IMG/VR virus record: IMGVR_UViG_3300020043_002997
Coordinates: 1 to 25,212 of that record
Reading direction: 5' to 3' (one strand)
DNA: 25,212 bases
Origin: a virus
Taxonomy: Duplodnaviria; Caudoviricetes
The notes beneath the pieces are model-generated. The model did no database searches. It was not told the origin of the DNA and saw only the letters and a program-made list of their open reading frames with translations. Made by a program: the position numbers and the translations under genes. Each line of letters starts with the position of its first letter. Position 1 is the stretch's first letter. Below are positions 20,831-23,546 of the stretch, piece after piece.

Positions 20831-23128
20831 TTAATGAGGTAAAGGTAAAGTTTTATATCCACTTCTTTTCAAATGAATCAAATACCAATCGTTCAAAAAG
20901 GTGTTAATAGCGTACCTAGCGCAATTATGAACTAGTATTCCATTTGCATAAAAGCACTTGTCAGAATCAACCGTTATGTCAAATACTGTATCCGTATGAG
21001 AGTACTCAAATGACTTCACCTTTAACTTTTGCCCAGTAAGATGACTTTGTACATTTTCTTGAGCAGTTTGTGGTCTTTGTATATTTGTTTGCAATAAAGA
21101 CTTTTGAGCAATAAGAGCAAACTCTTTCTTCATTATCCACGCCAGTATTTCTTCTTGACTTTGATTTGCAGTTGTTAGAGCAGAATTTAGCTGTTGAATT
21201 TTTCTTAACAAAAACAGCCTCGCAAGTCTCGCAGTTTCCTTCACCGAATGTCTTAGTTCCAAAACCCGTGTTTGCAGCGTGCTGTTTATGCCATTCGATT
21301 CCCTTTTCTGTTGAATGCCATTCTTTGGCTGCTTCCCTTCCTTTTTCCATAAAAGACTTATAGAACTCTGGATTTTCAGCATTCCTTTTCTTAACGTGAT
21401 TGCGAGAGTGCGTAGAGGCATCAACCAATTCAAAATTATCAATAGAGTTATTAAAGGCATTACCATCCTTGTGGTGAACCTGCATACCTTGAGCAATGTC
21501 TCCATGGTTGTCAAACCAAATTTGGCGATGAAGCGACCTTGTGTACCTATCAGATTTAGCGCAGTAGTAATACTTCTGCCTTGGGTGCTTGTAATAGGGG
21601 ATTCCGTTGTAAATAATTTTACTTTCCATATACTTAAATTTTCTTCAAATATACTAAATATCGGATAGTATCCACGCTTATCGCTAAAGAATTTATGATC
21701 CTTTGTGCAATACACTTCAGAATCATCAGAAAGCGTAACCTTATAAATCTTGGCTGTGCTGCTCCATGCGTCAGTAATCATCCTCTGACCATTCGGGGTA
21801 ATTACATAATCTCCAATGCTAACATCTTGTATAGCAACCTCTCCAAATGGAGTCAGAACCATTGTGTCAGCAGCAAAGCAATCACCGTGGTCAGCTAACT
21901 GACTGATAATGTTTCGGTTACGTTTTATAATGTTGCCAGCAGCATCGCATCTAAGTTGCTTAAAGTCCCTAGACATATTAGGGCATTTCTTAGGATTCAC
22001 CCTAAAGTCGGGGTGGTTTCTAAGAACGTAGTTACATTGCGCCCTGCTGTTTTCGTGCTTAGGGTTAGGCTGTATCCGTATCTGTTTAGTGCTAAGGTTA
22101 AGCCCTCGTGCAAGCTGCTCGTAGTAGTTGGCATTGTCCCTTTGAGACAGGTCCCCTCTTTTGCCCATGGCATCACCAGTAATAAGGCACATAGGAAGAT
22201 ATGGCTCGTATCTTTCCTTAATAACATCTATCATCTTCGGGATGCTTCCATCCACTACATTAAACTCATCCACTATGTGGAAATGTTCTCCTTGGTCATC
22301 TTTCCACTTCTGCGCTACGATTCCAGCAAAAGGCTGCAAGTTAAAATCAAGCGATATAAGCAACGGAATATTTGGGTTGAAGTGTATGGACTGGTCTTCG
22401 TGAGTTAGTGCGTCATACGCCATGAAAAACGGATTGTCGGGCTTCTCTTGAATCTCCCAGTCTCCCTCCACGAATCGTAGGTATTCGTATTCGGGCATAT
22501 TCGCCTTTAGAGACTGAAGGTAGTCGGCAGGGATGTAGGGGTTGTCTGTAATCTTCGAAGGGATGTACGCCCAGGTTTCGGGCAGTGCCTTCTTCTGCCA
22601 TCTGTCGTAGACCTCTTCTTTCACCCAGTTGTTAGCAGGGTTACAAGTGGCAAGTACTACGATAGGCGGTCTGCCAACGGAGTTGTTCCATGATCCAGCA
22701 CGTTCGAGCATTTTGTACAGCGTCTGCTCTTGGCACTCGTTAATCTCGTCAATGCCTCCTCCATTTATTTCGAGTCCCTTGAAGCGATCCAAGTCCTTGT
22801 CCGTTTCGTAGTTTTCGCCCATGAAGATAATCTCGCTTCCATTAGTGAAAGTGACCGTCTGCGCCTTTTTGTCCCAAGAGGAAATATACTTAGCCAATCC
22901 TTCATTCAGAATGGAGTTAAAAGTTACTAAGGTAGTTCTTTCGAGCGTAGGCATATTCGCACGGACAATCACCCACCTGCTCTTCGGGAACTTTGAGCAT
23001 AGGGATATGAAGGTTAGAAGAAGCCAGTAAGTTTTTCCACCTCGGATAGCTCCGCCAAACAAGATGAACTGCTTCTCCCCGGACAACGCCATCCTATAGG
23101 CCTCCGTTTGTCTTTTAGTTAATTTCAT
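20831..23128 (-). CDS. terL: Terminase large subunit precursor containing an intein (predicted spliced product 446 aa)
   Basis: Walker A GGAIRGGKT, Walker B GGIDE, motif C ATCNP and nuclease LDFN. Removing residues 417-735 restores DHGD-CARY, the terminase nuclease C-terminal D..RY motif. Confidence 0.95.
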   Translation of the reverse strand: MKLTKRQTEAYRMALSGEKQFILFGGAIRGGKTYWLLLTFISLCSKFPKSRWVIVRANMPTLERTTLVTFNSILNEGLAKYISSWDKKAQTVTFTNGSEIIFMGENYETDKDLDRFKGLEINGGGIDEINECQEQTLYKMLERAGSWNNSVGRPPIVVLATCNPANNWVKEEVYDRWQKKALPETWAYIPSKITDNPYIPADYLQSLKANMPEYEYLRFVEGDWEIQEKPDNPFFMAYDALTHEDQSIHFNPNIPLLISLDFNLQPFAGIVAQKWKDDQGEHFHIVDEFNVVDGSIPKMIDVIKERYEPYLPMCLITGDAMGKRGDLSQRDNANYYEQLARGLNLSTKQIRIQPNPKHENSRAQCNYVLRNHPDFRVNPKKCPNMSRDFKQLRCDAAGNIIKRNRNIISQLADHGDCFAADTMVLTPFGEVAIQDVSIGDYVITPNGQRMITDAWSSTAKIYKVTLSDDSEVYCTKDHKFFSDKRGYYPIFSIFEENLSIWKVKLFTTESPITSTQGRSITTALNLIGTQGRFIAKFGLTTMETLLKVCRFTTRMVMPLITLLIILNWLMPLRTLAITLRKGMLKIQSSISLLWKKEGKQPKNGIQQKRESNGINSTLQTRVLELRHSVKETARLARLFLLRKIQQLNSALTTANQSQEEILAWIMKKEFALIAQKSLLQTNIQRPQTAQENVQSHLTGQKLKVKSFEYSHTDTVFDITVDSDKCFYANGILVHNCARYAINTFLNDWYLIHLKRSGYKTLPLPH
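20924..21880 (-). mobile_element. Intein, 319 aa
   Basis: Block A CFAADTMVLTP, block B CTKDHKF (TxxH), blocks F/G VFDITV...FYANGILVHN, followed by Cys+1. Confidence 0.95.
21006..21629 (-). CDS. HNH homing endonuclease with two C-terminal zinc-finger repeats, nested out of frame in the intein
   Basis: HNH motif LHRQIW...G.I..GMQVHHKDGNAFNNSIDN..LV....H...H, followed by CETC...FCSNNC and CSYC...CSRKC. It has its own ATG and TGA. Confidence 0.92.
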   Translation of the reverse strand: MESKIIYNGIPYYKHPRQKYYYCAKSDRYTRSLHRQIWFDNHGDIAQGMQVHHKDGNAFNNSIDNFELVDASTHSRNHVKKRNAENPEFYKSFMEKGREAAKEWHSTEKGIEWHKQHAANTGFGTKTFGEGNCETCEAVFVKKNSTAKFCSNNCKSKSRRNTGVDNEERVCSYCSKVFIANKYTKTTNCSRKCTKSSYWAKVKGEVI

Positions 23129-23546
23129 CTTCTTCTCGTAAGTCTTCTTCTATCTCTTCGGAGTCATCAATGTCAACCACCTGCGGCATCGAATCACCTG
23201 ATACTGTTACTGAGTCATTTCCGTCAGTAAGTTCAAGCACGAATGGCTTGTCGTTGTTCTCCTGCACTGCATTCTGTGGCTTACCATAGATGTAGGCAAG
23301 AACAAGCTCTATGGCTCTCATATTGCCACGGATACCCTCAGAGACTAATCTTGCAATCAGTCCTTCCATGCGAGTAACTCCGTTTATGCTTTTGTTGAGT
23401 TCTATCTCAAGCATATTCTTTAAGTCCTTCTTCTTAGCTTCCCTTAGCTTTTTGACAGCTACTATCCTTGGGTCATCGGGACCTGAGATAGGGATGAGGT
23501 TTGCTCGGTGGTCGTGCTTGTTTTTGCTTGGCTTTTCTTCGGGCAT
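23115..23546 (-). CDS. terS: Putative terminase small subunit
   Basis: Overlaps the TerL start. It contains NLIP...DPR and GNMRAIELVLAYIYGKP, typical of TerS-like proteins, and an acidic tail. Confidence 0.7.
   Translation of the reverse strand: MPEEKPSKNKHDHRANLIPISGPDDPRIVAVKKLREAKKKDLKNMLEIELNKSINGVTRMEGLIARLVSEGIRGNMRAIELVLAYIYGKPQNAVQENNDKPFVLELTDGNDSVTVSGDSMPQVVDIDDSEEIEEDLREEDEIN

Follow-up and report, generated by a model that had tools for sequence, protein, structure and literature searches.

An HNH endonuclease gene overprinted on a phage terminase intein: a probable composite homing element

The window analyzed here, by which we mean the whole stretch of DNA, is a phage contig of 25,212 nucleotides (nt) that is about 56% complete (IMG/VR record IMGVR_UViG_3300020043_002997). 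Its terL gene, for the large terminase subunit, contains an intein, and inside that intein, in another reading frame of the same strand, lies a complete gene for an HNH endonuclease. We conclude, with a probability of about 0.8, that the intein and the overprinted HNH gene form an active composite homing element. In such an element, splicing of the intein frame would remove the insert from TerL. The HNH protein would be translated from its own start, separately from TerL, and its cleavage of terL alleles without the intein would lead to copying of the entire insert into them. Across the overlap the intein frame encodes a 208-residue peptide, which would serve as a passive linker at the place of an intein's usual endonuclease loop and would need nothing more than freedom from stops. 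The route by which inteins come by their homing endonucleases is an open question, and cases out of frame have been described as rare and transient. Among the relatives that we found, the nested state is the commonest, and free-standing and split relatives provide built-in controls.

One intein, two open frames

The intein qualifies as class 1 by its residue motifs, its predicted HINT fold and its in-frame insertion at a point where homologous genes have none. Cys1, Thr59-x-x-His62, the block F Asp, His318-Asn319 and a Cys at +1 are all present; C1, H62 and N319 are invariant in an alignment of 43 inteins, and the Pfam Intein_splicing, TIGR01445 and TIGR01443 profiles all match above cut-off. 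The N-extein ends in an Asp that, guided by an alignment, we take to be a catalytic Asp of the TerL nuclease domain. Removing the intein in silico restores D-C-A-R-Y and yields a TerL of 446 amino acids (aa; 416 + 30). Checks of open reading frames (ORFs) and motifs bear out the coordinates, sizes, exteins and open frames given in the initial annotation (Table 1). Its intact motifs, and the occurrence of the same layout in cultured phages, lead us to predict that the intein splices out of TerL.

The structure model agrees with this division of the intein. Residues 1-88 and 283-319 form a confident HINT fold, with a pLDDT score (predicted local distance difference test) of 95-98 over residues 1-80 and 88-98 over strands 283-318, and the insert is modeled with low confidence except for one long helix. 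The best fold match is the gp41-1 intein (E 9e-7), and DnaE and DnaB inteins match as well.

The HNH ORF lies wholly within the intein, offset by +2 (equivalent to -1) from its frame, and its stop codon falls 27 codons before the intein end. Both frames are open across the overlap; the third contains many stops. The HNH protein begins with an HNH_3 domain (aa 33-76), followed by a helical linker and two C4 zinc-finger-like units (Cys133-154 and Cys171-193). It matches Pfam HNH_3 at 2.5e-10 and phrog_15471 at 4.7e-34, and it retains every invariant His, Asn and Cys column of the family. Its model has a pLDDT of 90.5. The family profile matches I-HmuI (PDB 1U3E), the sole solved relative, at E 5e-4; a Foldseek search with the model returned no match at E 0.001 or better (1U3E: probability 0.91, E 0.49). 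With its HNH motif, conserved His and Asn and DNA-binding extension, the protein has the makings of an HNH homing endonuclease.

In Pfam and TIGR profile scans the intein frame matched no nuclease family, and the HNH appears in frame 3 only, as the initial annotation had read it. The intein is therefore not a canonical bifunctional one, in which the endonuclease is in frame with the splicing domain. The HNH DNA has a G+C content of 38.6%, compared to 46.2% in the N-extein.

Relatives, selection and mobility

The search for further inteins with an off-frame HNH, suggested in the initial annotation, was productive. We compared 80 viral loci, the 80 best of 100 confirmed HNH relatives (33-51% identity; 66 distinct HNH sequences); further members occur in GTDB contigs and GenBank phages. 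Frame HNH+1 is free of stops in 54 of the 80 loci. That frame encodes the C-terminal intein block in all 54, and the N-terminal block as well in 53. The remaining 26 loci have 3-13 stops in it, and in none does a continuous intein run across the HNH. Nine of these genes lie between the halves of a split intein and 13 are free, directly behind an intein-less terL; two stand behind a terL with a mini-intein, and two precede an orphan intein C-part. Across the 80 loci, an open frame and a continuous intein are never found apart, and the phase is the same throughout. An in-frame HNH was absent from the 80 loci (HNH-frame ORFs of 162-282 aa), and in a weak search among longer proteins none of the 102 candidates gave a score.

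Nearly all HNH relatives lie within or adjoin terL, and the nested inteins are inserted at the D..RY motif of the TerL nuclease. We scanned 43 host proteins from the 54 nested loci: 37 have a Pfam terminase match and the other six have a D..RY C-extein. For family statistics, 107 loci were reduced to 100 by dropping seven rows (L121 and L122, partial matches; L132, frame breaks; L074 and L079, broken HNH; L133 and L134, short HNH) and then to 76 at 90% identity, comprising 46 nested and 30 non-nested representatives. L130, a split intein, counts as non-nested. The host terminases of the 46 nested representatives form 28 groups at 40% identity. In four cultured phages (TJE1, Highwayman, phiCDHM19 and LS06-2018-MD07) the nested form lies beneath an annotated terL, and the HNH is unannotated in all of them. 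A metagenome scan with the intein gave three distant partial matches among 58 candidates, which we did not use.

The open intein frame is a property that the HNH sequence rarely yields by chance. When the window's HNH gene was recoded synonymously with the codon usage of this locus, a mean of 4.6 stops appeared in the intein frame and only 0.26% of 20,000 trials had none; the initial annotation had proposed this comparison. Across the family, with a mean expectation of 5.6 stops under synonymous recoding, nested relatives fall below the null and non-nested ones lie at it, although zero stops within the nested class is no result by itself because an open frame HNH+1 defines that class.

Other than the missing stops, the off-frame peptide resembles sequence that is not in use. 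Its pairwise identity is 22.3% among nested representatives, and the corresponding frame of non-nested ones gives 21.9%. The HNH itself (38.6% nested, 40.0% non-nested) and third codon positions (36.9% and 36.8%) likewise differ little. Between the window and its nearest relative (L001), the HNH proteins are 50% identical and the off-frame peptides 24%. Because the off-frame peptide is as variable as the unused frames of non-nested relatives, the intein frame appears to be selected against stops only, and the 208-residue peptide, as judged from these alignments, is unselected apart from their absence.

In this phase the price of an open intein frame is low: the HNH gene has to do without NTA codons followed by a purine and NTG codons followed by A. 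Nested HNH proteins contain less Met (1.2% versus 2.0%) and less Leu (3.7% versus 4.7%, p = 0.0015; a small shift) than non-nested ones. The initial annotation had taken several peculiarities of the window as further signs of constraint, namely an overlap peptide without Asp or Tyr, an HNH with 2 Leu, and Phe in place of Leu. The family does not support these. Asp is absent from the window copy alone (1/46) and Tyr from 3/46; 43 of 46 nested relatives keep the Leu, and the free-standing L005 and L014 hold just 3 Leu.

Variation among strains points the same way. Four sequencing runs contained 16 variants in the overlap, of which seven are silent in the HNH (expected 19%, p = 0.023) and three are silent in the intein frame (expected 22%, p = 0.73). 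None creates a stop, and within HNH codons 11-84 seven of nine variants are HNH-silent. At the level of sequence, the double coding is genuine and under selection.

Filled and empty alleles both exist. The intein is present in all six public runs compared, from six studies, and in a single contig in five of them. Filled and empty alleles occur together in two runs (X3 and X5), two others (X1 and X2) have loose contig ends compatible with an empty site, and the empty allele was not seen in X8 or X12. Of 27 loci found in a TerL-based search, 11 are intein-less alleles (L081-L091), four at 99% and seven at 89% protein identity. The empty site reads D-CARY-I in the runs and D-SCRY-M in L081-L084. 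Exactly 957 nt are missing from these alleles and from those in X3 and X5, so the intein is patchily distributed among close relatives. The sequences flanking the insertion differ from the empty alleles (Table 1) more than the gene does as a whole, for which the background difference is 3.3-3.6% of bases against L081 and L082. The runs that contain the stretch come mostly from freshwater, runoff and coastal samples.

The element also seems to have crossed between distant terminases. L001 pairs with the window twice, in the HNH tree (support 99) and in the splicing-domain tree (97), and its intein occupies the same rare site directly after the Asp. Its HNH and splicing domain are 50% and 51% identical to those of the window, and its N-extein only 24%, which suggests that intein and HNH likely moved together. 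I-HmuI is intron-encoded. By analogy with that enzyme, the HNH would be expected to nick DNA rather than cut both strands.

One could suppose that the HNH is silent or dying cargo in this phage, its open frame inherited rather than used. Decay does occur in the family, as in L074 and L079 two stops interrupt the HNH frame and the intein frame is open, and the window protein has unusual residues, with Phe for a conserved Leu and Ala for a conserved Pro. However, the invariant His, Asn and Cys columns are intact, strain variants are biased toward HNH-silent changes, and filled and empty alleles coexist. We consider this explanation improbable.

Probable expression of the nested gene

In each of the 46 nested representatives a start codon lies no more than 20 codons from the aligned HNH start (40 ATG, 5 GTG and 1 TTG). 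A Shine-Dalgarno match of at least four bases precedes 26 of these starts. Recoding the intein frame gives 17.7, with none of 500 trials attaining 26, and among 164 off-frame ATGs taken as a control the share is 14.6%. TATAAT-like hexamers precede 26 of 46 starts versus 15.6 expected. P values for these start signals are optimistic because the relatives share ancestry. The nested HNH likely has its own start signals, as far as the comparison of these loci can indicate.

Alternatively, the HNH might arise through a -1 ribosomal frameshift close to its start, in the form of a fusion of TerL, the intein's N-terminal part and the HNH, rather than from its own ATG. Heptamers of the form X-XXY-YYZ act as slip sites, and one lies in phase at 21641-21635, downstream of the final stop that precedes the HNH in its frame. 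Across the family, 5 of 46 nested loci contain the heptamer, where recoding predicts 2.9 (P = 0.13), and it is missing from L001. The start codons and enriched Shine-Dalgarno matches argue for independent initiation, and 416 aa of TerL would be wasted in a fusion. With the heptamer unenriched in the family, we rejected the frameshift fusion as highly improbable.

In the window, a TAnnTTTG element ends shortly before the HNH ATG and is a candidate internal promoter. We take TAnnTTTG to be the Bacteroidota -7 promoter consensus. It also ends 4-5 nt before four other gene starts on the minus strand (23551, 4683, 3085 and 1767). This placement, together with the lack of a Shine-Dalgarno match at most starts, suggests a Bacteroidota host with near-leaderless transcripts. 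A sigma-70 scan found no minus-strand site and four sites overall, compared to 3.7 expected. None of the sequencing runs listed as containing the stretch is an RNA dataset.

In a predicted hairpin, the promoter-like element makes up the 5' arm and the HNH start region lies in the 3' arm. In a local 50-nt fold the hairpin has a z-score of -3.3, and 1 of 100 shuffles is equally stable; a 141-nt fold around the HNH start gives a nonsignificant z-score of -1.23. The start region is predicted to be 15% unpaired in a long transcript and 87% unpaired in a transcript that begins in the loop. Production of the HNH probably relies on an internal transcript starting in the hairpin loop, with the hairpin hiding the HNH start on the long terL message.

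A different function has also been considered for such proteins. PMC4422536 (2015), in the portion available, discusses a class of terminase-linked HNH proteins and raises for brucellaphages the possibility of a packaging cofactor. The HNH of the window could be such a domesticated cofactor held by the intein, which would agree with the position of nearly all relatives in or beside terL. Yet near-identical phages join the empty site directly, and no HNH relative was found in five near-identical empty-allele records (54-66% complete; the search had no positive control). An N-terminal HNH followed by zinc fingers, together with the likeness to I-HmuI, is moreover typical of homing enzymes, and we regard a cofactor role as most improbable.

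That assembly indels displaced an in-frame HNH, a concern of the initial annotation, or that the segment is an intron removed from the RNA, is barely credible: the window offers nothing in favor and only one relative (L129) apparently lies in a group I-like intron, judged by eye, whereas the intein is free of indels in six of six runs (contigs, not raw reads), its phase is common to 54 loci and four cultured phages, no in-frame form occurs among the 80 loci, Rfam has no match in the window, and an intron would not require an open intein frame.

Several observations weigh against an active, separately expressed homing element. Nine of the 16 overlap variants alter the HNH protein. The window HNH has no Shine-Dalgarno match, as is true of most genes of this phage. 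From the genome-wide density of TAnnTTTG (29 sites on the strand), an element this close has a chance of about 3%, and it is unenriched across the family (3/46). Hairpins with z below -2 are found at only 11 of 46 nested starts, and the L001 hairpin leaves the ATG unpaired; we therefore treat the hairpin and promoter together as a candidate for the window copy and not as a family rule. The flank mismatches would fit either co-conversion or target escape, and their direction is unpolarised. Finally, the relatives are non-independent samples gathered with search patterns that favored one zinc-finger motif, and the order of the free, split and nested states cannot be read from the weakly resolved trees.

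Table 1. Features of the terL locus (positions in the window)
Feature	Position	Strand	Basis or comment
terL, terminase large subunit precursor, 765 aa	20831..23128	-	ORF; Pfam Terminase_6N and Terminase_3; PHROG terL families
N-extein, 416 aa, last residue Asp of D..RY motif	21881..23128	-	
Intein, class 1, 319 aa, TerL residues 417-735	20924..21880	-	Pfam and TIGR matches, motifs, empty alleles
N-terminal splicing region, about aa 1-84, single-coded	21630..21880	-	Structure model, fold matches
C-terminal splicing region, aa 283-319, first strand overlapping final HNH codons	20924..21034	-	Structure model
C-extein, 30 aa, starts C-A-R-Y	20831..20923	-	
Nested HNH endonuclease gene, 207 aa, ATG to TGA, frame 3 relative to intein	21006..21629	-	Pfam, PHROG, model
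TAnnTTTG element, TATATTTG, candidate internal promoter	21646..21653	-	Ends 16 nt before HNH ATG
Predicted 11-base-pair RNA hairpin, promoter-like element (5' arm) paired with HNH start region (3' arm)	21628..21654	-	
3' flank, likely co-conversion tract	20903..20923	-	Differs from empty alleles at 11/21 bases; p ~1e-11
5' flank	21881..21913	-	Differs from empty alleles at 6/33 bases; p ~0.001
Likely terminase small subunit	23115..23546	-	Position only; ORF overlaps terL start; no PHROG match

The gene order of the window is unusual. A tape measure gene (19425-16777) follows terL and a few small genes, and the portal gene (9646-7862) lies far downstream. PHROG has no match for 18 of the 25 window proteins scanned.

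Origin of the nested state and comparison with known systems

The initial annotation proposed that a free-standing HNH gene had invaded a mini-intein. As a mechanism this fits the family comparison, with its free and split relatives, a peptide kept only free of stops, and start signals in the nested genes. The direction of events, which the trees do not polarise, is plausible. In the splicing-domain tree, a branch with support 95 parts 38 nested inteins from the split ones plus eight nested ones. In the HNH tree, a quick tree with 32 of 73 branches open, the arrangement states are clustered yet interleaved.

Some individual loci show other arrangements. The inteins of the 46 nested representatives are inserted at four neighboring sites near the Asp of the D..RY motif: two residues before it in 26, one before in 14, directly after in 2 (the window and L001) and one further on in 4. 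In L067 and L075 a free-standing HNH gene follows, at a distance of about 66 nt, a terL that has a mini-intein at the D..RY motif, an arrangement that we would liken to collaborative homing. In L055 and L056 a complete terL is followed by the HNH and, beyond it, by an orphan intein C-part that has a second C-extein; recombination with a split locus likely left this relic. In Exiguobacterium phage vB_EauM-23 (L129:2270-3200) the annotated TerL ends before the motif, and a stretch coding for D-A-T-R-Y follows the HNH. The terL of this phage seems to be interrupted at the D..RY site by a group I-like intron, not annotated as such, that contains the HNH, judging from intron features read by eye; Rfam gave no match in that stretch or in 10 loci searched. 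The same element is intact in phiCDHM19 (L125) and has frame breaks in the older phiCD119 record (L132), where terL is annotated in two pieces. Free-standing relatives include one on the opposite strand between terL and portal in Salmonella phage Shemara (L127) and one upstream of terS in Acinetobacter phage BP10 (L128); Acinetobacter phage Highwayman has the nested form.

We tentatively offer a broader idea, which we consider possible rather than probable: that one HNH family at the TerL nuclease motif displays the full path by which an intein gains a nuclease, from free behind terL, through beside a mini-intein and split, to nested, and once apparently in an intron. The nested out-of-frame form might then be a stable end point and not a step toward in-frame fusion, as separate, hairpin-timed translation would uncouple nuclease dose from terminase, and the pair might also have slid among four neighboring sites around the same Asp.

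The arrangement has practical consequences. A splicing domain of 110 residues would accommodate about 200 residues of peptide that is not under selection. PHROG lists the off-frame peptide as a family of unknown function (phrog_35162), and the HNH is unannotated in the cultured phages, so annotation misses such nucleases. In a cultured phage such as TJE1, separate translation and homing are directly testable.

The likeness to I-HmuI is confined to an HNH core of about 64-78 residues. Another resemblance is to the fractured genes described in the available passages of PMC2677866, where split inteins surround a free-standing endonuclease preceded by hairpin-plus-promoter leaders. Shared features are the split state, found in 9 of our 80 viral loci with the host divided into two ORFs around the nuclease, the leaders, and a nuclease 3' end that overlaps the intein C-part. 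Fractured genes differ in having GIY-YIG and Vsr-like nucleases and a broken host gene, whereas the host frame of the window is continuous. Those passages give split and in-frame outcomes and not the off-frame continuous one. The ShiLan domain, as presented in the accessible part of PMC11855218, is an out-of-frame HNH in a phage methylase. As in the window, the HNH occupies the third frame of a host gene whose own frame stays open. It differs in that there is no intein or other splicing domain and the host gene is not essential.

The initial annotation implied that the architecture was new, which is not the case. A continuous intein with a complete out-of-frame nuclease ORF is a known layout, reported in the portions seen of PMC4422536 (2015) and bioRxiv 10.1101/2025.01.02.630785, and the window is an instance of it. 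A literature search that took in a minority of subscription journals found no paper on a phrog_15471-type HNH family at the TerL nuclease site; this nuclease family, the insertion site, the breadth of the family and the series of states are what we did not find in print.

The preprint, in the part available, concerns inteins of actinobacteriophages in which an endonuclease VII-like gene occupies frame 3. Strand and frame are the same as in the window, the in-frame insert likewise lacks recognisable structure, and an origin by invasion of a free-standing nuclease is proposed, the model also put forward in the initial annotation. The nuclease is different: by description, theirs is endonuclease VII-like (IPR004211), whereas that of the window is HNH_3/phrog_15471, and Pfam gives HNH_3 only. 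Its main text names neither TJE1 nor Tetrasphaera, and its supplements may list members of the HNH family.

A further parallel is in the brucellaphages (Perisivirus Tb and kin). According to the available text of PMC4422536, terL of every annotated brucellaphage contains a putative HNH gene that is intein-encoded and out of frame; in the Tb record (GenBank JN939331) the nested gene is annotated (ORF07/ORF08). As in the window, the host is TerL, the intein is contiguous, and a complete HNH and zinc-finger gene lies on the same strand in another frame. However, the brucellaphage HNH belongs to phrog_1271, places its zinc fingers first and its HNH last, and matches the window HNH over only 30 aa. 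Its phase is +1 and its intein sits in the ATPase half of TerL; in the window the phase is +2, the site is the nuclease D..RY motif, and the HNH is not of the phrog_1271 type. The two layouts are likely of independent origin.

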